From IMG/VR virus record IMGVR_UViG_3300021399_000115, positions 68,320 through 132,319 of that record: a DNA stretch of 64,000 nt. The stretch is one strand, 5' to 3'. The translations under genes were made by a program, and so were the position numbers. Shown piece after piece: positions 1 to 47,488 of this stretch (position 1 is the stretch's first letter; the number at the start of each line of letters is the position of its first letter). This DNA is from a virus. Taxonomy: Duplodnaviria; Caudoviricetes. Under the pieces are notes generated by a model, which saw only the letters and a list, made by a program, of their open reading frames with translations, did not search any database and had not been told where the DNA came from.

Positions 1-1123
1 GTTCATCATAGTCATTTACACTAATGTCCGGCAATGTAAAAACGTACATCATAATTATTAAATCTTTGACTGTGTATTTTTTGTTAAGATAGTTTGGATT
101 TACCTCAGATAAAGAATTGAATTTCTTTTGGATATCATTTTTGATGGTTACAACAGCCGAAGTCTCATTCTCAATTTCAATTTTTTTAACATAGAAAGAA
201 TCAACCACAGCTGCGAAATCTGCTTCTTTAATTAGCCCGTCATTACGAGCAATCATTCCCTGAAGGTTGCTCATTGGGTCTTCATTCAATCTCTTAACGA
301 CTCGGTTCGCAACATTATACTGATTGTAGGAAGCGGAATCAGTCCTTTTCATTTGAGTTTTTTGATCTTTCTGGAAGATAAACTGATTTGCTTTTTCCGT
401 AGAATAGTTAACAAATCTGATTTCCATCGGATAATCAAAATCCTTATCAAAGTTATATATCTCTGCCATTCCGAGCCAGCGGTGATAACCATCAATGATA
501 TTGAACTTATCGTTTACCAGGCTATATATCTTGAGGGTGTTATTGCTAAAACTGAATTCCGATCCCTGTGGGATATTGAGTGTGATGTCGTCTGGGATGT
601 AGCGCCCGGTTTTGAACGCTTCCTTGATCTCCTGGACGGACTTCTTATTTATAAATACTCTCATGATTTCCGTGTTGCCGGATTTGATGTGGCGAAATGT
701 TCGCTGTTCGTTCTCATCGTAGTTGATTAATCGAGCGTCCTTCATCGCCATAAGTTCCTGAAATGATGTGCGACCGATCCACTGATCCTCGCTTATCTGG
801 ATGATATCCTTAAATATGAATGGGAAAGTAATTGTTTTATTTTCTACCTTTTCGCTACTTAGTACTTCTATCTCATTGTCGGTAAAGTACAACCCAAGGC
901 GACTTCTTTTAATAAAATATAAGAATGCAAATACTTCAAAAGTTGATGCCTCTGCTATGTCTTTTTTGAATGTGAAATAATCGGTAGTAGCCTCAATAGG
1001 AATATTAAACTTGGAGTAAATCTGTCTATATAACTCCATCTTTTCTTTTCTGTTGGTTATATCCATTAACTTCTCATTTAGATAATTATTAAGTTCTGCT
1101 CTGCTTGCTTCGCCGTTTATCAT
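1..1123 (-). CDS. DGQHR/DndB-like ParB-superfamily protein, SPbeta YopQ-like (runs off window edge)
   Basis: Missing from ORF track (no stop in window). ATG at 1123 after an AAAGGAG RBS; hand translation gives ...RYIPDDITLNI...FNIIDGYHRWLGM (DGxHR motif); directly downstream of a tyrosine recombinase as in SPbeta yopP-yopQ. Confidence 0.7.
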   Translation of the reverse strand, partial: MINGEASRAELNNYLNEKLMDITNRKEKMELYRQIYSKFNIPIEATTDYFTFKKDIAEASTFEVFAFLYFIKRSRLGLYFTDNEIEVLSSEKVENKTITFPFIFKDIIQISEDQWIGRTSFQELMAMKDARLINYDENEQRTFRHIKSGNTEIMRVFINKKSVQEIKEAFKTGRYIPDDITLNIPQGSEFSFSNNTLKIYSLVNDKFNIIDGYHRWLGMAEIYNFDKDFDYPMEIRFVNYSTEKANQFIFQKDQKTQMKRTDSASYNQYNVANRVVKRLNEDPMSNLQGMIARNDGLIKEADFAAVVDSFYVKKIEIENETSAVVTIKNDIQKKFNSLSEVNPNYLNKKYTVKDLIIMMYVFTLPDISVNDYDE

Positions 1124-1184: not shown

Positions 1185-2147
1185 TTATTCATCATCAATG
1201 ATATTTCCAAGGAAATTACCCATAAGTGTAGCTGCCTTCTGGGAGGCGGTATTTTTCTGACCACGAATATAGATTTCTGTTGTTTTAGGAGATGCATGCC
1301 CCATACATTCCTGAGTAAGATACAGATCTTTTGTCTTTGCATACAATTCAGTGCCAAAAGTTCCACGAAGTTTGTGTGGTGTTTTTCCCGTATATTTCTC
1401 CACCATAGATACAATAGATGTGGTAGACAGTCTATTATGTCTTTTAGAGATAAATGCCGCCGGCTCACTAGTTACCATAGTCTCCCTATATTTAAACCAC
1501 TCTTTTACACTGGCAATCGTAGATTCCGGACAATAGATTTTACGATTTTTATCTCCTTTTTCCGCAACAGTTATTGAATTATCCTCAAAATTAAAATCCT
1601 TTACATCAAGTTTATACAGAGCCGCACGACGAATTCCGGTACCGAGAAACACCGCAAGGATTGCCTTATTTCTTGCTTTCTGCCAATCCGGATCATCGGA
1701 CTCGTTAACCATACGAAACGCATTAGCACATTGTCTCTTGGTAAGAAATCCATTTTCCCTCTTGTCAATCTGTTCCTGAGTTTCAATTGGTTTCGGTCTT
1801 TCCACGAACTGCATATAGTCCTTTGTATTAAGTTCGTTTGCATATAAATATTTTGACAACTTTTTCATAGCCGCATATGATGTGATTCTATTGGAAGAAG
1901 AATAATCCTTTAGTGTTGCCAGATGTCTTACATAGTTCTCCAATTTAATTTCCGAGGGATCGGCAATTTCTTCCTCATCTAAAAATCTAATTGCCTTATA
2001 CACATAGTTCCATGCGGACGTATATGTCATATTAGTCAACAGATAATAATAGAATCCAGTCAAGAACTTGTAACCACTTTTTTCAATTTTTCTAAGTGCA
2101 AGCTGTTCGTAATTTTTATCGTACTGTTTCTTTCCCATTTCGCTCAT
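1185..2147 (-). CDS. Tyrosine recombinase (YopP-like position)
   Basis: Complete catalytic set: TGIRR (R), EKGDK (K), PHKLR (HxxR), MGHAS (H), TTEIY (Y). Confidence 0.92.
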   Translation of the reverse strand: MSEMGKKQYDKNYEQLALRKIEKSGYKFLTGFYYYLLTNMTYTSAWNYVYKAIRFLDEEEIADPSEIKLENYVRHLATLKDYSSSNRITSYAAMKKLSKYLYANELNTKDYMQFVERPKPIETQEQIDKRENGFLTKRQCANAFRMVNESDDPDWQKARNKAILAVFLGTGIRRAALYKLDVKDFNFEDNSITVAEKGDKNRKIYCPESTIASVKEWFKYRETMVTSEPAAFISKRHNRLSTTSIVSMVEKYTGKTPHKLRGTFGTELYAKTKDLYLTQECMGHASPKTTEIYIRGQKNTASQKAATLMGNFLGNIIDDE

Positions 2148-5141: not shown

Positions 5142-5557
5142 TTATCTTCCTCCTCAGTAATTATTTTCTATTCCTCAAGTAAATGTTTGTGTACTTCTTA
5201 TATAATGTCTTCGCTTTTACCTTGTTGCCCATAGGATAAGACCGGTGAGTTTCCTTATAGTCTACATAATCCGATGTTTCATAAACATGAACCACATATA
5301 CCGTTGCTCCGTAGTGTTTGCCAACCATCAATTCACACACCATTTTCCCGTCTGTAGTTGCGCAAGATTCTATTGTCTTGGTCATTGTATCACGCTCCAT
5401 TCTTTAATAATCACTGTTCAATAGCTACGCAAGACCACTCTGGATGAGCGGCGAGAATTGCCTCTACATGATCATCGCCCTGGAGTGTATCAACCCAAAA
5501 CATTACGCAGCCGATTTCGTCTACAATCGCGGTTCTGAATTCCATTTGTACCCCTCC

Positions 5558-5722
5558 TTAATCGACAACACATACATCATAATCAGTACCCCAGCACATA
5601 CCATCATTATCATCGTCCTTTTCATCTCTGGCACATGCAATCTTTTTCGCTTCTTCTTCGTTTTCTGCTTCAACGAAATAACGGTGTTTTTCTTTATAGG
5701 TTATTACTACTTCGTACTTCAT
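5558..5722 (-). CDS. DpnD/PcfM-like small protein
   Basis: MKYEVVITYKEKHRYFVEAENEEEAKKIA after a GGAGATGATAAT RBS; start corrected from the track. Confidence 0.55.
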   Translation of the reverse strand: MKYEVVITYKEKHRYFVEAENEEEAKKIACARDEKDDDNDGMCWGTDYDVCVVD

Positions 5723-5726
5723 ATTA

Positions 5727-6068
5727 TCATCTCCATTCTTCATCATCATAGTCATCAGCTTCTTCAATAGACACAATTCTAAGTTCGTCCTTCGCCCAGT
5801 CGAGAGCATCATCCATAGCCACTTCCTTATTGGTTGCATCAACAATGTACTCTTCGTCACAACCTACAAAGCCAAAGTTAACCGTGACTCTGTAGTCCTT
5901 AACGAATGAATCATCGTCATCATCTACATCAACAGAAATGACGTCGAGGTTTTCACTTGCAAGATATAAGGCGATTTCCTTTGCCTTGTTTTCGTTGTCA
6001 GCTTCCACATAAAACTCGTCATCTGCTCCGAGAAAACTGAAATTTACTACTACTCTGTAATTCTTCAT
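5727..6068 (-). CDS. Acidic protein with two internal DpnD/PcfM-like repeats
   Basis: YRVVVNF..GADDEFYVEADNENKAKEIAL and YRVTVNF..GCDEEYIVDATNKEVAMDDAL. Confidence 0.7.
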   Translation of the reverse strand: MKNYRVVVNFSFLGADDEFYVEADNENKAKEIALYLASENLDVISVDVDDDDDSFVKDYRVTVNFGFVGCDEEYIVDATNKEVAMDDALDWAKDELRIVSIEEADDYDDEEWR

Positions 6069-6395
6069 ATTGTCGTTCTCCTTTGTATTTAATATTTCAT
6101 TTTCTCTACGACTACGTATTCATCACCGTAAAGTTCTTTTAATCCATTAACTACCTCGGCAGCTTCCAGTGTATTCTTATGGATAATCCTACATTTATAA
6201 AAATAACTCACTGCACCGGCTGTATACGGCTCATGCCACCAATGACCGTGACTATCTTTCCAGATGCTAACACAACCCCATAGCCCGTTTCCCTCGTATG
6301 ATTCGGGGAATATGCATAAGTACTTCCAAATCTTCATATACGGATCATACTCTCTACGGATGATTACCTTCTCTATACTCATACTATCATCTCCA

Positions 6396-9300
6396 ATCAA
6401 ACTTGATCTTTATTCTACGTAAAACTCCATCCTTAATGACCTGCTGTCAAAATCACTAAACATATCTTTAGGAAGGACAATTTCATAATCTCCAGCCTTG
6501 GTATAAATCCGATCTCCTTTAATATAAACTTCCCTTCCTCGAGACCATATTCTACCAATATCATTCCAGATTTTGTCTATAACTTCCTCTGGGAATCTAT
6601 GATAATATTTTGTATCCAAATCCACGGTAGCATGAGGAATAATGATTTTCTTTATATGATATCCCATCAGCTCAAGACCTTTAATAATATTCTTGATTTG
6701 TTTGATATCATAACCTTTTTCTTCATAGACATATCCATTCTGGTATGTCTCGCTTCTCAATGTGATATTATCAATATCCGCAATTACTGGCTTTTTATTA
6801 AGCAAGTAATTATTAAAATAAACTTTCATACTATCATCTCCTATCAAACGTGTTTTTTATTTAATTTCATTTCTAATTATGTTCAATATTTCTTTTCTAT
6901 ATTTTTCATAATACATATCCAGATAATATTCCATTTCTTCATCATTTTTAACCAGCTCAGTCAGCTTGTACATTTTGCCCTGGTTTATAAAATGACATGA
7001 ACTTACATACCATTCATTATCATCAATATTGAATCCATAACAAAATTCCATGAATATATCTTTTTTTGGTATTTTGAAATAATCATTTACAGATACACAA
7101 CCACCCATATCAAGTTCCGCAAGAACATCAATTTTATTGAGCAATTCATATTTCGTCTTGATGTTGAATAACTCAATACCAAGTGATTCTAAATGTGAAT
7201 CACAATGATGATATCCATATTTAACCATCCCATCTTTAATAATTCCCACATAAGATCTTGTTGACATATAATTCTCTCCCTTCATCAAAACTGTGTAATG
7301 CCTTCACGCAACTCAATCATCTTAACCTTCATGCCAAGTTTTTCTTCGTATTTATTAACTAAGTTTCCATGATAACCAATAAACAGCCCAGGGTATTTAG
7401 TAATCAGATACAACGTGTTTTCTTCTACATGAAATACTGTTGTGTCTTTATAAACACTGCTAAGACAAAGTGCTTCACTTTTCCATTGCTGGATAATATC
7501 TGTCATATTATCGTCTCCCTTCATCAAACGTGTCTTTTATTTCTGATATAATTCTTTATGTAATTCATTGTAATTATTGCTGCTTCTTACAAAGTTTCCA
7601 TCTTTATCAATTAAGACGTAATAAATATTTCCAAACTTATCTTCGCTTCTTATAATTTCTCCGTAGTTTTTTCTTTTTGTTATCAATCTTGTTATCATAT
7701 TATTCTCCCTTCATCAAAGCTGGTTTTATTTCCATCTAAACCCAGTTCTGCTTCGCTGCGTTCTACTGAGTCTTCCATACTCAGTATTGAATTCTTCTTT
7801 AAACTTCTGAAGCTGCCTATACATCTGCTCTTCAGATTCACAAAGTCTCATTCTTTCTGCCATCGTCTGAAATTCTCCAGCCCAATCTAAGTTTGTTCTC
7901 AGCTCTATTTCTTTTGGCATGTTATCACTTCCCTTCATTTCGCCTTGTAACTATCAATAATGTTTTTATATTCCACCAATAAATCCCTTACTTCTCCGAC
8001 TGCTTTTGCAAGTTTTTCATCAGGATATTTCATAGCAGCTTCATATAATTTCTGCATCACTTCCTGGTATTCTCTTACGTTTTTCATTACATCATCTCCA
8101 TTCAAAGTTAATTTTTATTCGTACACTCTATAGTTCTGCCGACCATGCTTAAATCCGTTAAAATCAATGTAGTTTTCCATCCATTTACAAGCATCATCGA
8201 ATGATGTGAAATAATTGTTACTAAACTTTCCGTTATGCCACTCTTCCCATCTCACTTTCTTTCTTCCAGTCCTTGTGCGTTCTACGAATTTGAAAATTGC
8301 AAACTCAGTTCCGTCTGGCAGACTATAAAAAGCTCGATCAACACATGCAACCTCACCAAGTTCCCAATCATTTTCACCCCATGTGCCAGGAGTAAATTCT
8401 ATTTTCAGTTTATATTTCGGATAATCGTATTTCATGTAACCACCTCCGTTAGTTAATCAACATATCATGCAGTGCATCTCTACACTCTTCATCCGTGAGT
8501 TCCCTTATCTGGTCGCGACCGTACACAAAATTGCCATGTTTATTATGGACGGTATAATCATACGTGCCGTTATCATAGCGGTATATTTTGCTTATAACGC
8601 CGATTTCACCATAAACATGGGTGTTATAGCAACCGTCCGGCATGTCAACAATTACCTTTACTAATGAGCCTATTGACATTTTGCTATTCTCCTCTCTTTA
8701 AACAATCTCAACTACCTTGCCAACCCTTGCGTTTTCAAAGTATCCATCACTTATCTGCCCTTCCATTTCCTCGTCGCATTCTTCCCAGGTGTTACGAGTA
8801 ATGTGAATAAGTGAATAATCATGTGTACCGGTTTTATCGAAGTTATCGGCCTCGAAAATCCGAACACCGTCTGCCTTATTTGACCAATCCCACTTGACTG
8901 ATGGGCCAAAACTTTCACGCTGCCGATGACCATCCGCACCGTATACTTTCCATGTACGAGTTATTGCCATAGAATCATCTCCCTTCATCAAACCTATCTT
9001 TCATCGTAGATAACCTTGCGACCTTCTTTAATTACAATTCTGTAATTCTCTTTGTGCTTGTATTTATCGAAGTATTCCAGATTGTTGCTACCTTCCTTTC
9101 TATGGAATGCACCGTTCCAGTTGTTATAAACATACATCGTATACTTGTATTTCACTAAATCACCTCGCTTTAATCGCAAATCCTACAATTCTAAATGGGA
9201 CGGTATGATCATAATGCTTCTTAAACTTTTCAATACCATCATGTGCTTCTGCTTCTGTCTTATATTCACTGCCGATTGTTACTTCCCAATCTTTTTTCCC

Positions 9301-12300
9301 GTTTGTCAAAAACGCAATTGCTTTATACATATTTTTAACCTCTCTTTCATTACATCCAGTAATCAATTGCCTCGTCATCGTCCAAGCGCAAAGTGTTAAT
9401 CTCTTTTTCAATTGCAAACACATTTCCGCGAGGAAAGTGTTTCTGTAAATCTTCCTTTGCCTGGTCGATGAACTCTGCTTCAAATAAGCCGTAATTATAA
9501 GTGAATCGACCGATTGTAATAAATAATTCGTACACCTATATCACCTCACATTCATGCGGTTCCCATTGCTCTATACACTTCATCATATGTAGAGTTCGTG
9601 ATTTTCGCTACAAATTCACACGCTGCTACGGTGTCCATGTATAATTTCCCGCGCTCCGTTGAGAGTTCTTTTAATGCGTTAATAAGTTCTTCATAAGTAA
9701 ACGTAAATTCTTTCATACTACCATCTCCTTTTAAATAACCGTTTTATTAGTGATAAAACCCATACAAACATCTGAGTTCTTCCAACATGTCATCATCATC
9801 GGCAAGACTCACCTTGTAAGCCGGAATATCATACTGCTCATGTCCAATATCCTGGATTGTGATGATGTCGTTATTAATTTCCATTACAACGCCCATATAG
9901 TAGGCATCGTCCGATTTATCCCAGAATGTTACAATATCGCCCGTCTGCATAATTCCATCTCCCTTCAAATCGTTGTTTGATCAAACTCGGTTTTCATTGT
10001 TAGTCAATCCAGATTCTTTCTTTTACAAGTTCAGACGTATCCATGTCTTCCAGTTCTCCATAGAATTCCCTCACCTTAGCCGCTGTTTCCACATCACCGG
10101 ATTCCTTTAATAAGTCAGCGACAAAATAAACCATGTTATCCATATAAGAGCGGCTCGGAATGTCGATGTATCTTTCATTAGCGCGAACCGCTTTTTTAAT
10201 TCCTTTTGCTGTAATCATCCATGTTATCTCCTTGTATAAGAGTTACCGGTTCCAAATTCGCCGAGTACATTTGTCTTGTACATTATCGGGCTAAGCGTAT
10301 GATGCTTAAACTTGGGAACGGTTTCATCATACTCTTTAATAAAATTTTCAAGTGTGTCATGGCTACTTTCCATCAGGCGGTCAAATAGTAACTTGCCTTC
10401 CGGATAGTTAGTAATTGACAGTGACAATTCCGTTGGTGGCATCCCGTTATACTCGTCAAGCGGAACTTCGAAATAAAGTCCCGTTACAATCCGGCGTTCT
10501 GGGTCAATCATCGCCGTGGCATCAAGCCACATGTCAACATAAGTGCTATCTAAATCCAAACCAAGAAAATCCAGAACTCTGTTTCTCATTGAATAGCCGG
10601 GATGAAAATCAACCACCACTCGTTTCTGTTCCTCGTCATAAACCCACAACGTATCCATGTCGATTTCCAATGAGTTGATTTCTGTTTCTCTAAATGTCAT
10701 AGTATCATCTCCTTTTATCTGTATGCTTGAATTGTAAGATACACTCTTGTTCCGTCGTTGAGGTCAATTACTACTCCTCTATCCATTGTGAGAAGATCTG
10801 CTTCCTCGAATGTCTGGACATCTTCTACCTCTGGGAAAAGAACGTCTTCATCATAATCGGCTTCGATGTAGCTATTATTCTTAATAGCTTCTACGATAGA
10901 TTCTTCAATTTCCTTTTCGTAATCCATGCTTATTCCTCCCATGTTTCGACTTCGCTATCCCAGCTATTTACAATGTTCTTAATTACTCCGGCGGTTTCCA
11001 GTCGTTCGAAGTAATCAAGCAAATCTCCCTGAAGATCTCCATATACCATTCCGTAAATGATTGCAGAACTATCGGTGTCATTGTTTTCTACTTTCTGCTT
11101 TTCGCTCTCGGGGATTTCTCTGACCCCATATCTCTCAAGGAAATCCTCAAAGATTTCAATGAGGTCGTTGATGTTGTCTAGTGTAAAGTACTTATTTGCG
11201 TTTGCCATAGTTACCACCACTCCTTATAATCTTTAAGAACCTCGTCTATAGTTGCCTTATTCTGCCGGCGAAATCCACCCTTGGGAGTGCCAACATGACA
11301 CGTTACTCCGTTATCAAACACCATCCGCTGCCGCCACATGTAGTGACGGTCGGCGGTATGTTTGACATCGAGGAGTTTGTGTGGGTTTCTGTTATTTCGG
11401 TAGGTCGTTACTCTCATGTGGCGGTCTCCTTTCGTTTAATAATTCATCGGACATTCACTCCATCCAATGTTGTCACAGTAGTACGGAATTCCGTCAAGTA
11501 CTACAACATCTGACATACTAAGTGATCTTCCGCAATATTGATTCGGACGTTCGTCTGTATTGAATATAACAAACAGTCTTTCAAGCGCACCGTTTACCGT
11601 TTCGCTTGATATTTTTCCGCGCCAAACAGGAACGTAATCAGCCATCTGCCAGTTATGGTTCATAGCGAAATCAAAATCTCTGAATGTGTAGCTCACGCTC
11701 ATCGGCGCCATGTAGATTATGTATTCTCTCACTTTCATATGATTAATCCTCCCTTGCACAAATAGTGTAAAATTCTGCATCGAGAATAATTTCGCCGGTA
11801 TCCATATCTTCAAGTGAGATATTTGCTGGGTCATCAATGTCACCGTAAATCGCAATTTCTACCTTATGACCAAAATGAGATTTAAGGATGTTCCACAGTA
11901 ATTCGTTATCCATCACCATTTCTCCTCTCCGTTCAATAAACGCTGTACATATTCTTCTCTCCAGCTACAATATTCTTCCCACGGTACTGTCGGGAAATGT
12001 TCATCTGCGTCATTTCGGTACACCTGGCAGTTTCTCCAGTTGCTGCAAATCATGGTGGGTATATCGTCCATCTCGGAGTCCGGCATCGCTTCCTCTCCGT
12101 ATGGACAATTCTCACATTCCGTGGGATAGAACTGAAGTTCATTGCAACCATCAATATATTTCTGACGGCGGTACGATTTGTTTTTCTCGTACCATGTCAG
12201 CCGTTCCATTTCCTTTTCCACTTCGTGGGCTTCGTCTTCCCAGCGACTACGGTTATATTCGGGTACGCAATTCGGAATACTACAATTCATAATTCTCATG

Positions 12301-12817
12301 ATACCATCTCCCTTCTTAATAGTTCATCATCAAGCAACCAAGGGGATAATGCCCCTTGACCGCATAGATTTCAATCATGTCACCAGAATCCTCAAGCCGA
12401 ACTCTCCGGCGGTCGGAAGTACCGAGGAATCCAATCGACTCAAGGTACTGGAGAATGTCCTTTTCGTTTGCGTCCTCAGTGATATTGAGGTCGTCTACCT
12501 CAACGCACTGGTTGTTTACAAAGTAACCGTCGTCTGCGTTTCCCCAGACGTCGAAGTAGTTGATTAACGACCATTTGTTAGCTTTGATATTTATCATGGT
12601 ATCATCTCCCTCTCCGCTACGTCGTTTTCAAGATCATTTAACACATCAAGTGCAACTTCCATACGATCAATTTCATAAATTGCGTATGGATAATTTGCCT
12701 TGTAATGATTAAGTTTCTCGGTTAATAAACTAACCGTCTGCTGAACATCTGCGAGTTCAATGTCGGTGGAATAAATAAATTCCATTGTGGCAGCCTCCCT
12801 TCAAATCCGACTTTTAT
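6396..12817 (-). repeat. Dispersed quasi-palindromic intergenic sites AT(A/G)AA-N6/7-TTT(G/A)A
   Basis: Sites at 6396-6413, 6843-6860, 7523-7540, 7713-7729, 8101-8118, 8987-9004, 9730-9747, 9964-9981, 9980-9997, 12800-12817, plus a half-site at 7284-7289. Confidence 0.85.
11436..11738 (-). CDS. YodL-domain protein
   Basis: LERLFVIFNTDERPNQYCGRSLSMSDVVVLDG..YYCDNIGW matches the YodL pattern; start MKVREY after RBS GGAGG. Confidence 0.8.
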   Translation of the reverse strand: MKVREYIIYMAPMSVSYTFRDFDFAMNHNWQMADYVPVWRGKISSETVNGALERLFVIFNTDERPNQYCGRSLSMSDVVVLDGIPYYCDNIGWSECPMNY

Positions 12818-13428
12818 CAAATCCACTCGTCAACATGGAATGCTCTGTCGGCGAGATACACATCGTCGGTTACCGCATCTCTATTCGCTCCCACAACCAT
12901 TTCAGTTGCATCAAGGATGCTCATCATGTGAGTCGGAACAATCATCAGTTCATGGATGCTGCTCGGAAGAATGTAAAAGTCTCCGAGTTTCTCTTTGATA
13001 GCAGCCAACACATACTTATTCAGGAGTATCCCGGCTCCGTTTGCAAGTTCATCATTAGTGAGTATAATCATCGGTTCATCCCAGGCGGTGAACTCATCTA
13101 CGTGTTTCATGAAATCACCGAAGCCTGCAACGGTAAGCTGTGCATCCAACATGGTGCCAAGTCTTGCTTTCTCCGCAATATTTGCTTTCGCTATTGCAAT
13201 CTGGCGAGGAGTGACTTCCGCCGGGAACGCAAGCGCACCATCAAGGTTGTATGCAATATAGAAGTAAATACCATTTTTTACTTCGATCGGCTCAATAGCA
13301 TCATTTTTGCGGTTCTTGTAGCTGCGCGCTACAATGATGAGATTCTCGTTGGTAGCGGTTTCCATCATGTTTGTGAGTTCTTTGTGCATCGGGTTGCTTT
13401 CGTCAATGTTAATAACTTTGTTAATCAT
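12817..13428 (-). CDS. DUF5688-like protein
   Basis: ILTN...NGAGIL...LGDFYILPSSIHELMIVP...EMV...N motif. Confidence 0.7.
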   Translation of the reverse strand: MINKVINIDESNPMHKELTNMMETATNENLIIVARSYKNRKNDAIEPIEVKNGIYFYIAYNLDGALAFPAEVTPRQIAIAKANIAEKARLGTMLDAQLTVAGFGDFMKHVDEFTAWDEPMIILTNDELANGAGILLNKYVLAAIKEKLGDFYILPSSIHELMIVPTHMMSILDATEMVVGANRDAVTDDVYLADRAFHVDEWI

Positions 13429-13445
13429 GGTCGTTTCTCCCTTCT

Positions 13446-16443
13446 TTAATAAATTGATAAGTCAAGTGGCATAAACCAGTGCCACTCACCGCCCTGGCGA
13501 TTAATCCGTTTCCTTCGGACTATCCAAGTTCGTATAGTACAACAGTTGTTTGTCGCTATAGCGTACTCATACTGCCCGTGTTGGACAGTATTTTCGCGGT
13601 TTGCCTTGTAGGCGTTGTATATCCGCCGCTGAAATTCAAGTGTCATCGTTCGTCACCTCCCAGCTCTCTTCTAAACCGGAAGCGCTGAACTCATTGTTAT
13701 CATCTCGAAGCCAGATCTCTTCCTTTCTCATGGTTACCATCTGATATTTTCCCGAAGCAATCAGCTTAGCCATTCGCTTCTGTGCATTTGCCTTTGTTTT
13801 ATAAAGGCGGTCATCGGCTACTCCCCAAGTAGTTTTGTCTTCCCACATATGAAGTTGATAGTAGGTGACTTCCTTTACGGGATACGTGGACAGCTGCTGT
13901 TTAATAGTCATAATATCCTCCTTAATGATCGGTCCCGCGACCGACCGAGTAAACGTAACCGGTTTCTTTATCCACAATCTCCATACGGAGTGCGTCACAT
14001 CTGCCGTCCTCATCTTTGCAACACCAAGTTCCATTGAATTCACACTCAATGGGTGCATTGGCCGCGGAGATTAAGTAAATGCGGTCGATTTCCACATCAT
14101 AGCAATCATCCATATCCATGGTATTAAAAATCTGATTGCCGGTATAAATCTGTGGGTCTTTAAGTTCTCCGTCGATTTTGTAGGTTACTAAATACCTTAA
14201 CATTCTATCACCCTACCTTCCTGATGATGTTGTTAACAACCACAACACGCTCAACCGTGAACTTGGTTATCTCATCATGATTTGCCTTGGCAATTAATCT
14301 GTAGTTCTTAGCGATTAAATTCGCTGCGAACTCCGATGAGTGAACCGGGACATATTCCCGTCGGTTTCCGTAATCAATTACGACACGCCAATACATCAGT
14401 ATTCCTCCCTTCCGAGGTTAATCTGGGTGATGAGAACGTCGATGATTAAATCGACCGTTTTGTTCTCGAGATCACTCATTAGAATTCCGTTTGCAAGACT
14501 GATATAACCATCGGCTATTTCAAGTTCTTCCTGGTGTTTAAGGAAGATATCAGTGATTGCTTCGTCAAGTTCTCCCTTGATTGTATCTTTCAGTTCTTTA
14601 TATTTATCGTTAGTCATAATATTTGCCTCCTTAATCACTGCAAAATCTCAGCCTGTTATCATAGTACGTAACAGCCGCCTGAAGTCTATTCCAAGTGGAC
14701 GGCTCGTTTCTGTTGCACTCCGGAATTTTTCCGGCTTTAATAGACAAATCAACAAGATTACGGAACGCTGCGACGTTCTCATCATCGTTCCATTTGAGCG
14801 AACCGTACTCTGTGGCGAAGTCGGTAATCGCATCATACAGTTTTCTGTTCTTCATAACGATCTCCTTTAATAAATCATCCAAACACTGCTCTCAGCATTT
14901 TCTGACGTGCCTTTTCGTAACGCACGTTGTTTCCCTCGTTTGCCTTAGCCGCAGATTCCACATCATAAATAATGGAATCAATAACCACTTCACTCACCAG
15001 AAAATCCCTGGCGAGTAACCGGAACTGCTGTTTCCATTTGATTTTCGCCGGGTTGCTGTAGGCTTTACAATATAGAGTGTCTACGCAAGTCATCGGTCTT
15101 GCTCCTCTGTTACGGGCAATCTGCTTAGTAGTAATCATTCAAGCCTCCCCCTTCTGAATGTGTCAAATACCTTCTCCGCATTACATGTTTTAATAAATTC
15201 CTTATAGATGGAGAGTTCCTTTTCCAAGCTATCAACAGTTTCCTCAAGCGAGTCAATTCGCTTGTTAATATTCTCCTGGATCATGTTCCGCAATATCGGA
15301 ACTGTGTCACCCGGGATTTCCGTTGTAGCTTCTGCTCCATGGTGTCCGTCCTCGGTGGTAATCCACATGAACAGCTTTGCCATGTCGGCATGTGGATCAA
15401 GAGTACGAAGCAATAGCTGACGGATGGCTAATCCGAGAGAATCTGTTTGATACTCATTCATTAACTCCCAAGGGTCGGGACCATCGGTATCTTTCTGCGA
15501 ACTCTCATAAGCGGCGGAGTTCTCTTCCGGCAACCATTCAACTGAGTAACCGACAGTTAACTTCGCATCGTTATAACCGGAGCGGTTCTTCGGCGTGATA
15601 GAATCGTACACCGGAGTTGCGGTCAATGGGTTTTCCTTTTGGATTTGAGCAATCTGCCCAAACTGATCTTTAGTATGAAGTTCCCACATGGTTTTTTCTC
15701 CTTATGCTACCTTATTGATGGCTTCATTAAGTTTATCGGCTATCCATGTAGCTCCTATATCTTCATATTTATCTTTTACTAGCAAACGAAGATAAGCAAT
15801 GGCATTTTCCTTTGTTGTGAAATAATGTCCCTGTCCCCATGAATCACGATCTGGGCGGTATGCCCATGCAGCTACCCACGGTGTACATATATTGTCTGGC
15901 CAGTGGACAAGAATATAGTTGAGTTCTGGGAGATTAAGAATGATTTCTTTCATGGTGTGTTCTCCTTTAATAAATAATTATAATCAAGGACTTCTCTTTG
16001 TCAAGAGTATTTTTTGCCCTTCGTGATGCTCCTTACCGGTTTGCAGAACGGACACGGTTTGCCTTTGGGATATGGAGTGTCAAGAATAAGGCATCCGCCG
16101 AATTCTTTTGCAAAGCACTTACGCTCGTCATTACATTTTGTTGTTTTTTCTGCTTTCATTAGATTGCTCCTTTCGCTTTGAGAAAATGTTTAAACACAGT
16201 TGTGATGTGAGTGTCGTTACAGTCATATTGTTTGTACCACTCACAGATTTCTTCCGGGCGGAATAATGCGTTTTTGAGAACGTTCGCCGCCCAGGTGGTG
16301 AAGTCCTTTGTGTACCAATGATTGGATTTGCCTTCCGCAAGGAAATAGCGGAATTCTTTATCCTTGACATAGAGCGAATATCTACGCTCAATTTCCGGTA
16401 ACAAGTTTTTTAGCTTCATTGTATCATCTCCTTGATTAATCAT
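13446..16443 (-). other. Cluster of small hypothetical genes (13446-13646, 13922-14203, 14208-14396, 14396-14638, 14631-14882, 14875-15138, 15135-15689, 15702-15953, 16159-16419)
   Basis: Co-oriented ORFs with overlapping stops and starts and SD motifs; no recognisable family. Confidence 0.65.
15977..16004 (-). promoter_or_regulatory. sigma-A type promoter
   Basis: Minus strand TTGACA-N16-TATAAT upstream of 15953. Confidence 0.6.
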
Positions 16444-16508
16444 TCTCCCTTATGGTTACATTGAAGCCGGAGAGCGTTATTCTCACCGGCTTTATCTAAC
16501 TACAAGGA

Positions 16509-17387
16509 TTAGGCAACCTTGATTCGTTTTCCCTTGGAATCAAACTTAACTGTCTGCCCGGTTTCTTCTACAATAAAATCCTGAAGGTATAATGTGAGGG
16601 ACGCTCTCCATCCTCTTTCGGGATATGCCGCAGCTCCTTTCGCTATTAGAAGATTGGGATTTGTTTTCCTCATGAATCCGCCGAGGAGATCAATAACATC
16701 CGGATAAGCCTGGATAATATTTGCTACCGGTATCATTATCCTCGAGCTAAGTCCGTTTCCCTCTTCCATGTAGCCGGCTTTATCCAGTACACGGAATGTA
16801 TCTTTAAGAATGTCAACCCCTTTCTCTTTTGCAATTCCGTATGTAGCGCTGTAAGACCCCAGCACTCTTGCATGTCGCTGACCGCTTACCTCGACAATCT
16901 CAACTCTATTCTGTTTGCAGAGATCTTCGACAGCAATAGCAATCTGATCATTGTCAAGAACTCTTGCCTTGTGCATCTGTACCGGTTTTACGGTTTCAAG
17001 ACAATCATTCTGATGAAGGAATAATCTTGCTTCAAAAATCCGTCTCTCTTCCGGATCTGCCGGACCGTCTATAATTACGCAGTTGAGAGACGTAATCCCT
17101 TTCTGTTTGGCAGCGGTCAATCTCCCTAATCCATCCACTACTGAGAATTTGTATTCTTCCGGATGCGGAACTACACGAAGAGGATCCATCTGGTTGTCAT
17201 CCCATTCCCTTACAAGACGGGATACCTTGTTTTTGTTACGAGTTTCGATTCGCTGGTATTCGGGATCAATAGTCAGCAGAATCGTATTGATGTATGCGTT
17301 TTTCTTAGTGCCGCAAATTGACACGTTGTTCATAACAGAGATATACAGTTCCTTTTCCAGATTTACAGTTGTTGCCATATTTACCAC
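16509..17387 (-). CDS. ParB/Srx-superfamily protein (DUF6551-like)
   Basis: IDPEYQR...VVDGLGRLTAA motif. Confidence 0.75.
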   Translation of the reverse strand: MVNMATTVNLEKELYISVMNNVSICGTKKNAYINTILLTIDPEYQRIETRNKNKVSRLVREWDDNQMDPLRVVPHPEEYKFSVVDGLGRLTAAKQKGITSLNCVIIDGPADPEERRIFEARLFLHQNDCLETVKPVQMHKARVLDNDQIAIAVEDLCKQNRVEIVEVSGQRHARVLGSYSATYGIAKEKGVDILKDTFRVLDKAGYMEEGNGLSSRIMIPVANIIQAYPDVIDLLGGFMRKTNPNLLIAKGAAAYPERGWRASLTLYLQDFIVEETGQTVKFDSKGKRIKVA

Positions 17388-17409
17388 CTATATCCTTTCT
17401 CTTTAATAA

Positions 17410-20400
17410 TTAGTTAATAGCCCAAGTACCAACCTTGTTTCCCTTGAGGTTAAGAATCATATCAGTTACTTCCCGGAGCAGTGCCGGCTCCAACACTTCC
17501 TCATCACACATAGTGTCCATAAAGAAGTTGACGGCGGTCTTTTTAACTGCCCAGTAAATATCATTGTATGTTTCCATTAGCTTGAAGTATGGTTTCTTCA
17601 AGCAGTAATTTAATAACTGATTAGCCACATTTACCACCTCGCTTTCCCTTGAGGCTAATTGCGTTACGCTGAAACTCTAACCCAATGCCGACTGCTCCGA
17701 CAAGACAGCCGAGGATAAATCCTAAGCCGAATAGTGCCATAATATTCTCCCTTCTTAGTTAATCCAAGTTTTTGTCTTGCAGTCAAACGTCGCACCGTTT
17801 CCGTCCTGGTACGGATTGTCCTTTGAATAGCGGAAAATCCACAAGCGGTGACCGCTTACTGTGCGGATTTCCATTGTGCCATTATCCATTGCATAACGTT
17901 CCCGGTATCCACCGGCTTCGTATGCATCCTTTTTCGTTACTATCTGTGTAGGCATAGACTCATCTCCCTTCTTAATAATTAACGCGGAATGTATGGACAC
18001 GCTCCGCATCATCAATCAGTTCCTTGTACGTATGAGAACGGATTGTAATTGTTTTATCTGTGTACTTTACGAGACTCCATGTCTCATATTTACTAAGAAG
18101 GTGTGCTACTCGCGGATTTGCCTTGATGTGGGACTGGTAAATCCGGTTAAAGTAATCACGGGCGACCTCATGATAGATGCGGTTTCGCTCTGCGGTACGT
18201 TTCGGGACGTCGGTATAGTCATCCATCAGATTGTATTTCCGTTTGGGATTGCCGGAATGTACACGGTACCCAGCCAACCAAGGCAGAATAACCACGTCCG
18301 TAAAGCTACACCCAAGGTTCTCGTTTACTAGCTTGAGAATGTTTGCCTTGGTATAGGACAAACCGGTTCTCTTACGTTCAATAGGGTGAATGTATGTATT
18401 GCAATCTCCGTTTCCATTGTGAATCTCAAAGCAGAAATCTACAATGATCATGTCCGAGCAAGTGTAGTAATAATCATGGTGGTTTCCTTTCTTCACAGCT
18501 CCCGGCGGTGCGTCATACCAGTGGTAATTCTCGCAGCCGGAAAATAACTCCAGATAGAATTCCCTTCCGTCATCGGTGCGGAATGCCGTACGGATACGGC
18601 AATTTTCTACATCGTTTACGTTGGTGCCTTCACATCCGGCGCCTTCGAAGTATAATGTTTTCATAGTGTCATCTCCCTTCTTAAATAAATAAGTCTGCGT
18701 ATCCGACGTATCTTGCATCGACCACGCGGTCATCGTAACAGTTACGCGGAGTTCCGTTGTCATCCATGATGGTGGCAACAAAATCTCCAGTAAACCAATC
18801 ACCGGAATCGTCAATCCACGACCAGGATCGACCGGCTCCGTCCTCAAAGGTAATTTCGTATTCCCCATCTGCCTTGGGGAGTACTTCCACTACTTCCCCC
18901 ATGTGGGGGTAGATTGTGGCGGAGACCTGGACTGTAATGGTGAGCGCCAAAAGTCCGGCGAGAATTGTTTTCTTCATAGTATTTCCCTCCATAATTATTT
19001 TTGCGGTTCATAACCACATCTATGGATACAAGGATAATGATTTCCCTAGCGGATTTCCCTTGCATCCACAGTCTGGTCGTGAACTAGATCTCCTTGAATC
19101 CGGCATCGCGGAGAGCGATGTACTTCTCCGCGAAATCCGGATAAGTGACAGACCACCGGTTTCCGTTCCAGATGCGGTAGCTTGCATCTGTGTTGATGGA
19201 GAACCGGACTATGGATTTCCCTTTGGACATAGTGAGGATCACTTCTCATCACCTCCAATCCCAAGGGTAAGGGTAAGGGAATCCCCTTCCTTATATCCCA
19301 ACTGTCCAAGGGTTACCTTCGGGACATAGATTGTCCCAATGATCGGAGCGGAAAACTCCGACTCTAACTGCTCGGAGAATCTCACCGTATTCTTGGTGAT
19401 TTTCTCGGGTACAAGGTTTACGGTTACGTTTGTGTTTTTAGCCATGGTTGGCTCCTTTCTCCCACACTATCGCAGTGGGCGCATCATTTGTTTATCTGTA
19501 ATACCGGGAATCTATCCTATCATACAGAACAGTCCCGTCCGGGTTAATGTAGGTTTCTCGAACGAGTTCCCCACATGTTTCCCAGGAGTCCCCGTACTCT
19601 TTTATTAACTTCCCGAGGTTATCCCCAAGATAATTAGTCTCTTTCATTTTCCACCCGCTCATAAACTCTTCGTAGACAGAAAGATCACCGTCCTCAAAGA
19701 GTTCGTGGTCGTAATCATCTGACCGAATATAATCTATCCCCACTTTGTTCCTTTCCGGGCGATAGTAGGCATATCTTTCGACAAGTTCTTTCCCGTCGTA
19801 GAAAGACTCTACACGAACATTATTCTTTTCCTCAATGATTTTTTTCATTATTACTCCTTCTCCCCGTCAAGCCGATAGGACAGCGTTATCTTTAATAGTT
19901 CATCTATGAGGACAAGACACGCTTCTCCTCATAGTCAACCATTAAACTACTCGACCCAGTAACCGCGATCGCGGTACGAGTTCGCCTGGGATTCTGTGAG
20001 TCGCATAACATGGAACTCACAAGTAAGTTTATTAGTTACTGTGAACCAGAATTTTGGCTCATGGCGTCGGAAAATACTCATACCATCACCCCCCCCCTCA
20101 ATCTTCCGGTTCGTTGGAGTCGTAATAGATGATGTCGCCGCGCTCTGCATACCCGTTGTTAGTAATATCGCGGACTATTGATCTGATATGTTCCGGGTAT
20201 TCCGGTGTGTCTCCCCAAACGGCCACCCGTTCGGAATACGTGTTTTTAGTTTTGTCCCATTCATCAATCATAATATACATAGTTTTCCTCCTCGTAATTT
20301 AACCCCTCGCATAACCCCAACACACCCGGAATCTGCACGTAGCTAAACTCCAAGCGGTTACCACGGTATACGGACAGGGTAAGTCTGCATGTTACAGTTT

Positions 20401-21837
20401 TCAACATGGTTTTTTCAACAGCAAGGGGAGCATGAGAACGGATTCCCACACTCCCCGGTTTGGACGGAGTTAGTCAACCTTTATTCTCCACCGGAACTTC
20501 TCCCCATGAGGGTCGGGTTCTGCGGTGGACGGTTCGACCTTGACAAAGTACCACGTTTTGAGGACATGATTCTTGCCGATGGTGACATCTACCGTGAGCC
20601 GGTAGACTCCGTCCGTAAGCTGTTGAAGGGTGAGCATGATAAACACCTCCCCCTTGTGCGTGGATTCATAGCCGGATTGTAACCGGTGGGGGATAAACCG
20701 TATCGGTTACGGACTATGCGCACATACCGATTGCCGAAGTGTTTCGGTAGCCGGTATCTGCGCATAGGCAGATAGGGACGGTTAGTCCGCGAGTTTATAC
20801 TCCGCGTCATCATCCCGGGATATTTCCTCATACTTGGTCTCTTGGTTAAAGATCGGTTCAACATCCACGCCCGGGGATTGAACCCGGCGCGAGTCCTACT
20901 GTGTGGAAGTGATATTACCGTCCGTATGCCGGCATCTTAAGCCAGTCATACCGGGTTTTACGTGTGGTGGCAAAGTATGCCGTACACACAAAGTTATTTG
21001 CGGACTCCTTAGCAGCCTTCGCAGCCTCCTTCTTAGCCTTAAGAATCTTTGCTTCCATCGATCTGTTTGCCATGATATTTTCCTCCTACTGGTTATTTGC
21101 AGAATCAGCCGGGACTATTCCCGTTGCCCGCCACCCGCGACGCGGACGCTTCTGCTATGAGTGGCATGAGGGGAGGCTTACGCCGCCTCCACCTCTTTTT
21201 TCTCCTCGTACACATGGAGGGTCAGATAACCTTCCTCGTCTGCGTCAAAGCATCCCTTCTCGAATACAGCGTACTCGATGAACGCCCGGATAACCATGTC
21301 CTTGAAGGTGTTCTTCGTCCAGTCGCCCAGCAGGTGTCCGGCTTCCGCAGACTTCCCGGTAGCCTTCTTTCCGCCAACTAACCAGTCACTTATACCGTCA
21401 CCGAGTTTCTCGATACCACGTTCTGTGCCACCAAGTCCAAGTTCCGCAAAGAACTCACTCAGTGCCACAATATAGGCGTCCCGGTCGGTCTTGCGGTTCT
21501 TGTAGCCCTCATAGAGGCTGTCCGGAACCAGTTTCGTAGCCTTCGCCTGAGCAAGACGGAGAGCCTTGCAACCCTCTTTGTAGTCATCCTCAGCCTCGGC
21601 AAGTAAGTTCTGTGCGTCCATGAGCGGATTGGCAGAAATCGCCTCATCCCAGTTCGAGCCGGCTTCAACCATTGCCTGCCGACGGTTCTTGATTTTGGTT
21701 ACTTCCTCTTCGCAGAGTGCGACAGCCTTCTTCAGGGTAGCTCTGGTGGTCTTTCCGGTGCGGATTGCATGATAGTAACTGCTCATTGCCTGAAGTGCTT
21801 CCTCTGTGATGTTCTGAATGTTAATATTTTTTGCCAT
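17410..21837 (-). other. Cluster of hypothetical genes at the start of the leftward arm (17410-17637, 17755-17955, 17972-18664, 18681-18977, 19084-19242, 19239-19445, 19492-19848, 20098-20280, 21178-21837)
   Basis: ORFs with SD motifs; 18681-18977 has a signal-peptide-like N-terminus (MKKTILAGLLALTITVQVSA); 19084-19242 ends in TAG. Confidence 0.65.
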
Positions 21838-37267: not shown

Positions 37268-37363
37268 TTATTTGGCCGACGAGGCCGTTATTCCTAATAC
37301 ATGAAAAACTTGTGGATGCGCACCATGGTATTGGCTAAGTTTAAGGTTATACGCCAATAATAT

Positions 37364-37435
37364 AGCGAGATAGAGCAGAGGAAGCTCGCCACTTTCATAG
37401 GGTGGAGGTCTCCGGTTCAAATCCGGATCTCGCAA
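37364..37435 (+). tRNA. tRNA-Met(CAT)
   Basis: Cloverleaf: AGCGAGA/TCTCGCA (1:72 mismatch, as in initiators), anticodon arm CCACT-TTCATAG-GGTGG, T arm TCCGG-TTCAAAT-CCGGA; no encoded CCA. Confidence 0.88.
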
Positions 37436-37438
37436 TTT

Positions 37439-38417: not shown

Positions 38418-38498
38418 TTCGTTCATGTTGGTACGCGGGAGAGTAACTATTACTCTTCTGCTTCGGGTTCGATTCCTGGGGTGAAATTTATTATTTTA

Positions 38499-38567
38499 GA
38501 GTATGTGGTGTAATGGTAGCACACTTCGCCTGGGACGAAGGGGAGACGTTCGAGTCGTACATATTCT
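38499..38567 (+). tRNA. tRNA-Pro(TGG), slightly degenerate T stem
   Basis: GAGTATG/CATATTC acceptor, D arm GTGT-AATGGTA-GCAC, anticodon arm CTTCG-CCTGGGA-CGAAG, TTCGAGT loop. Confidence 0.7.
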
Positions 38568-38622
38568 ATTTGCCAGTGATAAATATGGTAAAATCAATAT
38601 GATTAAAAGGAGGTAAAAGGTT

Positions 38623-46294: not shown

Positions 46295-47488
46295 ATGGCT
46301 AGGTTATCACAAGAAGATTTTGAGGAAAAGTTTTATAATATTTTTGACAGGGACGAATGGGCAGTAATTGGTAAGTACGTTAACAATAATACTAATATAA
46401 AAATATTGCATAAACCATGCGGGACCGTTGTTGAACGAACATGGGCTAGTTTGCAAAGAAAAACTTGTAATTGCCCAGTATGTCATTCCAGTAAAAACAC
46501 AAAAACAGTTGTTAAATGGGTCAATGATATTGCCACTACAAATCTTGCGCTATTTTCTTTATTACTTAATAAGGAAGATGGGTATAACTATAGAGAACAT
46601 AGTAATCAGTATGCGTGGTTTGTATGCCCAAAGTGTGGAAAACATCACTACAAGATAATAAATAACGTGGCAAAGCAAGGATTATCATGCGAGTGTTGTT
46701 CTGAAAATATATCGTATGCGGAAAAGTTTTTTATCTGTTTACTTAAACAGTTAAATATTGATTACGTATATCAGTATACACCCGACTGGATTAAACCGTT
46801 GAGATATGATTTTTATTTTTGTTTAAATTCCAATCAGTATATTGTGGAACTAGACGGAGGATTGGGACACGGGTTTGGTAGTTTTAATCCTAGTGATTTT
46901 GATGATTGTGTTGAAAGAGATAATATTAAGAACGAACAGGCTAAATTACATAATCATATATTAATTAGGATTGATTGTAATTATAACATAGTCGGAAACC
47001 GCTATCAATATATCAAAGATAATATAGTAAAACAGTGTGGTGACATACTGGATTTAAATAAGGTTGATTTTGGTGAATGTAATAGAATTGCTCTTCTCAA
47101 AAATTGTGAGTATATTTCTGAATTATGGAATTCTGGAATACAAGGCTATCAAAACTTACAAAATTATATACCTGTTGGTCGCGCCACAATCAGAGATTAT
47201 TTAAAAAACGCATCTGAGATTGGATTAATTTCTGAATCTTATGATGAAATATTAAAAATTAATAGGATTTATAGCAATAAGAGACTTCAAAAATCTAAAG
47301 GTAAAGCTGTGATGTGCAATGAGACCGGTGAGATTTTTGCAAGTATATCTGAGGCGTCTAGGCAATATAAAAAATATCATGCTTCAAGTTTGCTTAATTA
47401 TTTTATTAAAAATCGAAAATATTGCGGAACACTTCCAGATGGAACCTGTTTAACCTGGCGACTAATTGAAGACAAAAGCGCTAGTTGA
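46295..47488 (+). CDS. Free-standing homing-endonuclease-like protein (Zn-ribbon + PD-(D/E)xK/Vsr-like + NUMOD1-like)
   Basis: HKPCG..CPVC, WFVCPKCG..CECC, RYDFY...VELDGGLGH...D..K...LIRID, C-terminal VMCNETGEIFASISEA; AT-rich; no TAG. Confidence 0.75.
   Translation: MARLSQEDFEEKFYNIFDRDEWAVIGKYVNNNTNIKILHKPCGTVVERTWASLQRKTCNCPVCHSSKNTKTVVKWVNDIATTNLALFSLLLNKEDGYNYREHSNQYAWFVCPKCGKHHYKIINNVAKQGLSCECCSENISYAEKFFICLLKQLNIDYVYQYTPDWIKPLRYDFYFCLNSNQYIVELDGGLGHGFGSFNPSDFDDCVERDNIKNEQAKLHNHILIRIDCNYNIVGNRYQYIKDNIVKQCGDILDLNKVDFGECNRIALLKNCEYISELWNSGIQGYQNLQNYIPVGRATIRDYLKNASEIGLISESYDEILKINRIYSNKRLQKSKGKAVMCNETGEIFASISEASRQYKKYHASSLLNYFIKNRKYCGTLPDGTCLTWRLIEDKSAS

Follow-up and report, generated by a model that had tools for sequence, protein, structure and literature searches.

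A conserved intercistronic block in a hypervariable island of large gut phages, probably a translation-initiation linker and gene-shuffling junction

The sequence analyzed here is a window of 64,000 nucleotides, the last 64 kb (positions 68,320 to 132,319) of the 132,319-bp viral record IMGVR_UViG_3300021399_000115 (referred to as G000; estimated completeness 68%). A preliminary description of this window had noticed small genes separated by copies of a short motif, AT[AG]AA-N6-7-TTT[GA]A, and had suggested an integron-like array of gene cassettes. The observation itself was confirmed. The motif proved to make up the 5' half of a conserved intercistronic block, approximately 30–35 nt in length, and the phages which carry this block form a family of 160–202 kb from animal-gut metagenomes with an island of orphan open reading frames (ORFs). 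With a probability that we put at roughly 60%, the block is a translation-initiation linker which doubles as a short-homology shuffling junction, and not an integron site.

The intercistronic block and its distribution

The array is located in a long arm of small genes. Approximately 65 small and densely packed ORFs occupy the minus strand of positions 1–23,000, and this strand, which is the coding strand of the array, carries 188 of the 232 ORFs called across the whole record with a simple home-made gene caller. Ten minus-strand matches to the motif were detected between 6397 and 12817, compared with 16 in the window when both strands are counted and 31 in the complete record (23 on the minus and 8 on the plus strand). 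The ten copies in the minus strand of 6089–12817 are far above the number obtained from 1000 dinucleotide-preserving shuffles of the same strand (mean 0.54, standard deviation 0.74, maximum 4), and the arm 1–23000 gave a similar result (ten observed; mean 1.25 and maximum 5 in 300 shuffles). Thus, the repeated motif is real and enriched. Ten spacers had been listed for it, nine of which belong to exact matches (at 6397, 6844, 7524, 7714, 8102, 8988, 9731, 9981, and 12801); the tenth (CAACGA, approximately 9965–9980) has TCAAA as its left arm and is a near-match.

The genes enclosed by these sites are unrelated to each other, as had been proposed. Among the 29 ORFs called in 5500–13500, no pair of paralogs was found (blastp, E-value ≤ 1e-5 over at least half of the shorter protein), which rules out paralogy as the origin of the repeats. 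The region from 6 to 8 kb is indeed AT-rich, with GC contents of 0.335 (6001–7000) and 0.325 (7001–8000) versus 0.397–0.454 in the adjacent flanks.

The complete block was recognized by laying out the sequence 5' of every start codon. It consists, in this order, of a stop codon (ATAAAA), 5–7 nt, (G)TTTGA(T), an extended Shine–Dalgarno (SD) sequence, (GA)AGGGAGATGAT or GAAGGGAGATGAT, and an ATG that lies 7–9 nt downstream of it. Nearly all sites had been described as overlapping or abutting the upstream stop codon, and the nine exact copies agree with this: the left arm supplies the upstream stop (its TAA) in five of them and a second stop immediately after the real one in two, while in the remaining two the upstream stop is a TAG within the spacer or lies 5 nt upstream. 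The left "arm" is a stop codon in an A-rich context, often accompanied by stop codons in other frames. The first T of TTT[GA]A is found 19–22 nt before the ATG in eight of the nine sites. A shorter element contained in the block, TTTGATGAAGGGAGA, has four exact copies inside 1.7 kb.

Minimum free energies (MFEs) of the blocks were not below those of mononucleotide shuffles. For 45-nt blocks, z-scores ranged from −0.30 to +1.55 with RNA parameters, and DNA parameters gave MFEs of 0 to −1.9 kcal/mol with z-scores of −0.70 to +1.08. No common fold was detected among the blocks, the 100-nt contexts being mostly no better than shuffles, and a scan of positions 1–24000 revealed no Rfam family that matches them.

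To find relatives, viral contigs were scanned with a 16-base piece of the block, which returned 38 stretches, and tblastn identified three large records among these as relatives: G001 (202 kb), G002 (185 kb), and G003 (161 kb), the latter two with terminal repeats. An alignment-based scan added L078, L105, and others; the locus L079 belongs to the same record as G002. Deposited phage genomes gave no match in a near-identity search with the DNA of 5700–13500, and a single-protein search of viral contigs with the product of 12817–13428 gave no relatives.

A hidden Markov model (HMM) built from ten blocks of the window detected 28 sites at E-value ≤ 1 in the four genomes (12 in G000, 8 in G001, 4 in G002, and 4 in G003). 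All 28 are on the coding strand, nearly all lie inside the corresponding islands, and the reversed-sequence control gave none. In the loci of the relatives the same model found 14 further sites, again all on the coding strand (4 of the 14 belong to L079 and hence to G002), and blocks of this style were also seen in L078 and L105. The presence of these sites in the related islands and in L078 and L105 indicates that the block is a family trait of one island. Positions outside the SD are conserved between genomes whose shared proteins are only 30–70% identical. In addition, whole block alleles including the spacer (AAAGACACG, AAAGATAGG, and AAAACGGTTA) recur in different genomes between gene pairs that have no mutual similarity at E-value ≤ 0.1.

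Gene turnover and positions of exchange

The closest relative is G001, whose shared proteins are mostly 75–96% identical to those of G000. The arm is collinear with G001 over 23337–10325 and 5557–1; between 10325 and 5557, G001 matches two pieces of block only (51 nt at 92% and 28 nt at 96% identity). This hypervariable island (5557..10325, minus strand) contains 18 called ORFs between 5558 and 10218. The array is made of promoterless single-ORF units in one orientation, all on the minus strand. By tblastn, none of the 18 was matched in G001, one in G002, and two in G003, whereas outside the island 18 of the 26 ORFs in 10224–18664 were matched in G001.

Single cassettes of the island recur at 87–96% identity in genomes much more distant than G001. 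The gene 6857–7267 is present in G003 (92% protein and 95.5% DNA identity), 7285–7506 in G002 (93%), and 8449–8679 in G003 (87%). Four island ORFs occur in L105 in a changed order, L078 holds others, and contigs from four other animal-gut metagenome runs (X3, X4, and X6 are referred to below) contain single cassettes joined to different neighbors. The runs were used as assembled contigs, in which rare variants and circles are invisible, and only stretches covered by contigs were interpreted. Single-gene replacements were found throughout the arm. The view that the array consists of exchangeable single-gene units is borne out, since the limits of gain, loss, replacement, and reordering fall in the intercistronic sites. 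Comparison of the relatives' indel boundaries with the sites, a check that had been set beforehand, revealed boundaries coinciding with the blocks, with a crossover position that is not fixed, which speaks against the mechanism suggested in the preliminary description.

Several exchanges could be located within the block. A two-gene indel relative to G001 (12315–12795) has its crossover in the 8-nt GAAGGGAG of the SD, 3' of TTTGA, and its partner sequence, ATTAAGAAGGGAGATGG, contains neither arm. The gene 7285–7506 is missing in G003, in which an intact ATAAAAGACACGTTTGATGAAGGGAGA directly precedes the homolog of 6857–7267; this arrangement places the exchange within the 15-nt repeat TTTGATGAAGGGAGA, whose partner site at 7289 has no left arm. 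The limits of the cassette 6857–7267 in G003, X4, and X6 are 7285–7289 (TTTGA) and 6835–6843 (TTGAT/SD). A contig of X3 joins 7534 to 8113 in AATAAAA, with seven shared letters, and a joint in X6 (6839/5547) has a partner site without the motif. Further boundaries map to the block's 5' edge (7540/7541, 9004, and 9747), to the SD (6839, 7711, 8985, 9956, 12609, and 12794), and to start codons (5547/5548, 8435, 9534, 9714, 9948, and 11737). Most contig joints and ends of matching pieces either have offsets of +2 to +34 nt relative to the ATG or coincide with a start codon.

Ends of high-scoring segment pairs were concentrated in the 44 nt before starts: 46 of 104 in the comparison with G001, 23 of 54 with G002, and 27 of 56 with G003, compared with 8.6% for random positions. 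Thirteen pure indels between G000 and G001 had junction overlaps of 7, 6, 8, 5, 6, 16, 1, 11, 15, 3, 8, 0, and 5 nt, with an overlap of at least 5 nt in 9 of the 13 and at least 7 nt in 6 of the 13. Four of the overlaps hold SD sequence (ATAAGGA, AGGAGAGTATAATGAT, ATTACTGAGGAGGAA, and GAAGGGAG), and nine of the junctions lie within approximately 20 nt of a start codon. Elsewhere in the genome, whole-gene indels use microhomologies of 5–16 nt, several of which are in SD sequences. The overlaps and their SD content suggest that whole-gene indels in this phage family generally arise between short direct repeats, and the linkers of the island are the longest and most densely repeated sequences of this kind. 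Ungapped extension from start and stop codons, which gave many zero extents because of small indels in the translation-initiation regions (TIRs), was used qualitatively alongside the alignments.

Explanations of the block

As a translation-initiation linker, the block would terminate the upstream ORF by a TAA in an A-rich context and then present the invariant (G)TTTGA(T) in an A/U-rich stretch free of structure, followed by the long SD and the start codon. The island would be a hypervariable early-gene region inside one long leftward transcript, so that each ORF would need its own linker for translation. A consensus sigma-70-type promoter (TTGACA-16-TATAAT, 12/12; 15977..16004, minus strand) is the putative start of the transcription unit of the array. 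Between 16000 and 4790, just one strong terminator-like hairpin was detected on the minus strand, at 4849–4816; with its T-run it resembles an intrinsic terminator (−16.6 kcal/mol in context). From these two elements we infer that the array is part of one polycistronic unit of approximately 11 kb. Among the listed minus-strand sites, no sigma-70-like promoter was found with both hexamers inside a block; overall, the promoter scan gave 52 sites versus 45.3 ± 6.6 in shuffles.

As a shuffling junction, the block would act through its shared sequence. Since the same 8–35 nt stand at many gene boundaries and are common to related phages, recombination between linkers would delete, insert, replace, or reorder whole ORFs. 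Each product would again be a working expression unit, as whole ORFs would move in register. Such recombination would be driven by homology or microhomology. One candidate enzyme is an AAA_24 (PF13479) protein, which was found above the cut-off in all four related records (in G000 at C1:56905–57483, minus strand, approximately 312 aa, outside the window); AAA_24 is presumably the Pfam family that includes Sak4-type annealases.

On the other hand, several observations speak against the linker-and-junction reading. Breakpoints were found at 11 of 22 motif-bearing TIRs and at 53 of 162 other TIRs, a difference that is not significant (Fisher test, P-value = 0.15; three relatives, with little power). 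Thus, a causal role of the block in recombination is not proven by the sequence comparison against the alternative that selection keeps only those recombinants joined at gene boundaries. Most contig joints are replacements with no shared letters or with unknown letters between, and homology boundaries are intervals rather than exact crossover points. A family search of the four records detected no member of the RecT, RecA, ERF, or Rad52 families. Finally, as judged with the general anti-SD sequence, pairing with the 3' end of 16S rRNA would not account for (G)TTTGA(T) and the fixed A-run, both of which flank the stretch expected to pair. Their role may be that of a standby or enhancer element or of a site recognized by a regulator or nuclease, or they may be no more than the conserved core through which the linkers keep recombining.

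The last points lead to the main rival, an RNA-level operator. A factor from the phage or its host would then bind or cleave the A-run, spacer, and UUUGAU directly 5' of the SD and so coregulate the island genes; it could be, for instance, a repressor of translation or an endoribonuclease on the model of T4 RegA or RegB. Gene exchange would be only a by-product of selection for intact genes. Targets of RegA and RegB are A/U-rich or centered on GGAG and lie in the TIRs of many early phage mRNAs. The strict strand specificity of the block and its fixed distance to the ATG would suit such an operator, as would its lack of structure, which is usual for targets of single-strand-binding factors. Conservation outside the SD across genomes with 30–70% identical shared proteins points the same way, and confinement to one island suits a regulon. 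However, in a difference from T4, no homolog of RegA (PF01818) or RegB (PF10715) was detected in the four records, a weak negative as the control genomes were blank too, and the blocks have no Rfam match. An operator alone also leaves the 8–15 nt microhomologies at indel junctions unexplained. We consider this explanation possible, at rather low odds.

Another explanation is passive mosaicism at gene boundaries, in which random or illegitimate recombination is followed by selection for joints between genes, and the block is kept purely as a strong translation signal with no effect on the recombination rate. Breakpoints that are equally common at motif-less TIRs fit this idea, and so do the single-gene replacements throughout the arm, the contig joints with no shared letters or with extra letters in between (the majority), and several G000–G001 indels with overlaps of only 0–3 nt. 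It accounts less well for the 9 of 13 overlaps of at least 5 nt and the 6 of 13 of at least 7 nt, which we estimate to be far more than random joining would produce. Moreover, gene turnover is complete in the very island where shared linkers are densest and longest, and different genomes retain identical block alleles between gene pairs that are unrelated. A purely passive origin seems doubtful to us.

A further reading is that the island is a dedicated cassette-exchange platform, in which the invariant ATAAAA/TTTGAT edges of the linker would be recognized by a phage recombination function and single ORFs would be excised and reinserted in register. The Xer-like recombinase, which every relative encodes a few kb downstream, would be a candidate for this function, as would the AAA_24 protein. 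We regard such a platform as unlikely; if it existed, it would be a phage counterpart of the integron, with sites built into the translation-initiation region.

The reading of the preliminary description, site-specific recombination sites from which a phage tyrosine recombinase would excise or insert single-gene cassettes in an integron- or Tn916-like manner, appears very improbable. The core site of a tyrosine recombinase consists of two inverted binding arms around a 6–8 bp overlap, in which the strands are exchanged; here, the overlap would be the 6–7 nt spacer. Tyrosine recombinases are present, as had been stated: Pfam Phage_integrase domains were found in 1185–2147 (minus strand) and 59522–60538 (plus strand), and the motifs R..HxxR..H/W..Y that define these enzymes are readable in both. 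The former encodes a Xer-like protein of 320 aa with apparently complete motifs and is syntenic in all relatives examined. Cassette limits do coincide with the motif (6857–7267 extends from TTTGA to TTTGA in G003, X4, and X6), and several boundaries are at two edges of the spacer (7534/8113, 9975–9978, and 7289). However, the "inverted arms" ATAAA and TTTGA are complementary in AAA/TTT only (three bases), the left one being the stop context and the right one standing 19–22 nt ahead of the ATG, on the coding strand in every case; the sites are bound to strand and frame context. Crossovers are spread over the whole block, mapping to GAAGGGAG in the SD, TTTGATGAAGGGAGA, AATAAAA, and start codons, and none needs an exchange within the spacer; some partners lack one or both arms. 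Exchange in the spacer would give chimeric spacers, and the observation that spacer alleles are whole argues against it.

An integron was rejected as well. Its attC sites are long imperfect inverted repeats at the 3' end of the cassette that fold as single-stranded DNA, and no attC-like fold, no IntI-type integrase, and no fixed crossover position were found here. The recombinases are generic Xer-like proteins that scored far below the cut-offs of the integron-integrase models; for 1185–2147 the scores were 64.6 bits versus 265 (TIGR02249) and 40.6 versus 435 (NF011946), and its best matches are generic Xer models, likewise below their cut-offs. We note, without giving it weight, that this recombinase is 32% identical to its counterpart in G001, compared with 87–92% for the adjacent genes, and looks like a replaced allele.

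The remaining proposal, that a recombinase-fold repressor of the SPbeta MrpR/YopR type uses the blocks as operators, is the least probable of all. In its favor, a large protein (29268–31874) is shared with Enterocloster phages, Clostridium phage c-st, and a Bacillus phage, and MrpR is reported to bind a 15-bp sequence that recurs in about ten promoter regions of SPbeta (PMC10516654). However, the blocks are asymmetric, strand-specific, and away from promoter-like sites, both recombinase homologs retain the catalytic motifs R, HxxR, H/W, and Y, whereas MrpR is reported to lack crucial residues, and it is another repeat, TTAATTATTAA, that flanks promoter-like sites.

This second repeat is an inverted repeat (TTAAT-T-ATTAA) with 22 coding-strand copies in G000, 22 in G001, none in G002, and 2 in G003; its minus-strand positions in the window are approximately 3963, 4789, 17982, and 23539. 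In G000, five copies are located 2–10 nt upstream of a sigma-70-like −35/−10 pair and six copies 5–21 nt downstream, ten copies stand directly before an SD, and several promoters are bracketed by two copies. About half of the copies flank sigma-70-like promoter pairs. TTAATTATTAA could be an operator or a promoter-cassette repeat, and it resembles the SPbeta element SPBRE more closely than the motif first noticed does.

Island layout, related systems and significance

All sites of the island and its right flank described here are on the minus strand. From left to right, the block ATAAAGATCAAG-TTTGAT-TGGAGATGATAGT (6383..6413; an nhmmer match) precedes the ATG at 6382, and the motif match at 6813..6829, which spans the ATG of the gene 6410–6829, is due to chance. 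The block with spacer AAACACG (6830..6860) precedes the ATG at 6829 and is the 3' limit of the cassette 6857–7267 common to G003, X4, and X6. It is followed by a short block without the ATAAA arm (TTTGATGAAGGGAGA, 7268..7289), which is the crossover zone of the G003 indel and in which the TGA of TTTGA serves as the stop codon of the gene 7285–7506. The allele ATAAAAGACACGTTTGATGAAGGGAGA (7507..7540) precedes the ATG at 7506 in G000 and other genes in G002 and G003, and a TTTAA variant is present in G001. Blocks with the 6-nt spacer ACCAGC (7699..7729) and with spacer AATTAAC (8088..8118) precede the ATGs at 7698 and 8087, the latter being the one at which the X3 contig joins 8113 to 7534. A TTTAA variant, GTTTAAAGAGAGGAG (8680..8705), precedes the ATG at 8679 and forms the 5' limit of the cassette 8449–8679 common with G003.

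Farther along, the allele ATGAAAGATAGGTTTGATGAAGGGAGA (8971..9004) precedes the ATG at 8970; the stop codon of its upstream gene is the TAG in the spacer, and the identical spacer and TTTGAT are found between unrelated genes in G001 and G003. The spacer allele of TAATAAAACGGTTATTTAAAAGGAGA (9717..9749), before the ATG at 9716, recurs identically between unrelated genes in G002 and L105. A double block, ATGAAAACCGAGTTTGATCAAACAACGATTTGAAGGGAGA (9951..10002), precedes the ATG at 9950; 51 nt of it are kept in G001 at 92% identity, with different genes downstream. In the flank, the block TGATAAAAGTCGGATTTGAAGGGAGG (12786..12819) precedes the ATG at 12785 and is the left junction of the two-gene indel relative to G001, whose right partner is an ordinary TIR without the ATAAA/TTTGA motif (ATTAAGAAGGGAGATGGTATC, 12300..12323).

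Seven ORFs of the island and three of its flank (11436–13428) were compared with Pfam; none of the seven island ORFs was matched, and the flank gave a YodL-like match for 11436–11738 and DUF5688 for 12817–13428. PHROGs matched two of ten island ORFs, weakly, with families of no known function. The minus-strand ORF 5727–6068 (113 aa) consists of two similar halves, and one contig of X3 swaps 135 nt inside this ORF for 168 other letters.

Other elements were observed elsewhere in the window. The sole Rfam match in 1–24000 is a hepatitis delta virus-like ribozyme at 21095–21165 on the minus strand (RF02682, F. prausnitzii; 46.2 bits versus a gathering threshold of 44, E-value = 9e-6, full model). 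The 868-aa protein 29268–31874 (plus strand) belongs to phrog_8308 and has no Pfam match; it is 51% identical to a protein of an unannotated human-faecal phage record and 22–26% identical to proteins of Enterocloster phages, a Clostridium phage c-st, and a Bacillus phage, one of the Enterocloster homologs being annotated as "RNA-dependent RNA polymerase". We presume that it may be a YonO-like phage RNA polymerase. In the ORF 2–1123 (minus strand), a DGQHR domain was matched weakly and below the cut-off (24 bits), and 58046–59221 (plus strand), which adjoins the second recombinase gene, encodes a protein similar to class-V aminotransferases and cysteine desulfurases (Pfam E-value = 1e-84); a link of these two genes to DNA modification is a guess. 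The rightward arm also carries, on the plus strand, genes for tRNA-Met (37363–37436) and tRNA-Pro (38497–38569) and two HNH/homing-endonuclease-like ORFs (46295–47488 and 55943–57217).

Among known systems, the block can be compared with the PeSLs (promoter-early stem-loops) of T4-type phages, a kind of mobile regulatory cassette. These are conserved intergenic motifs between the stop codon and the SD and start codon, which are concentrated beside ORFans in hyperplastic regions and recombine with each other to yield indels (Arbiol et al. 2010, PMC2839356; Comeau et al. 2014, PMC4122927); mini-circles that arise when adjacent copies recombine are a further mark of PeSLs. On this description, both are repeated motifs from the stop codon to the SD and start codon in hypervariable, ORFan-rich regions, both bound indels and replacements between relatives (although boundaries at motif-less TIRs are common here too), and in both the exchange is ascribed to homologous recombination between copies that yields ready-to-express units. 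In contrast, PeSLs are conserved over approximately 100 bp, with a sigma-70 promoter and a terminator stem-loop, whereas the block is about three times shorter (~30–35 nt), has neither promoter-like hexamers nor a stable hairpin, and is located inside a putative long operon of phages with Firmicutes-type ribosome-binding sites.

A second comparison is relaxed recombination in phage mosaics. De Paepe et al. (2014; PMC3945230) report that phage recombinases of coliphages act on short or diverged sequences. There, as here, exchanges between related phages occur at short conserved stretches flanking unrelated DNA; the phages are, however, temperate coliphages with Rad52-like recombinases and longer homologies, whereas in the present family an AAA_24 protein without detected RecT, ERF, or Rad52 is accompanied by homologies of 5–35 nt. 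Similarly, SPBRE with MrpR (PMC10516654) is a short intergenic element with many copies in a large Firmicutes phage that encodes proteins of tyrosine-recombinase fold; it is a DNA operator in promoter regions, unlike the intercistronic, strand-specific block fused to the SD. The array also resembles an integron in its same-orientation arrangement of unrelated promoterless single ORFs, its recurrent boundary site, and the tyrosine recombinase nearby, and differs in the absence of an IntI-type integrase and attC, the unfixed crossover, and a site that is a translation-initiation region. Word searches of the literature returned no description of SD-centered intercistronic linkers as shuffling junctions, which is not proof of absence.

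Large gut phages contain long runs of small genes without known function, the turnover of which is poorly understood. In the family of 160–202 kb phages described here, a recognizable conserved linker marks a hotspot of such turnover. The case is also a warning that a repeated boundary motif beside a recombinase gene need not mean an integron. If the proposed role of the linker is correct, the idea behind PeSLs, that a regulatory sequence is at the same time a recombination junction, would no longer be limited to T4-like phages but would also cover a linker whose action is purely translational, and the block would offer a practical way to delimit the exchangeable accessory genes of phage genomes from metagenomes.

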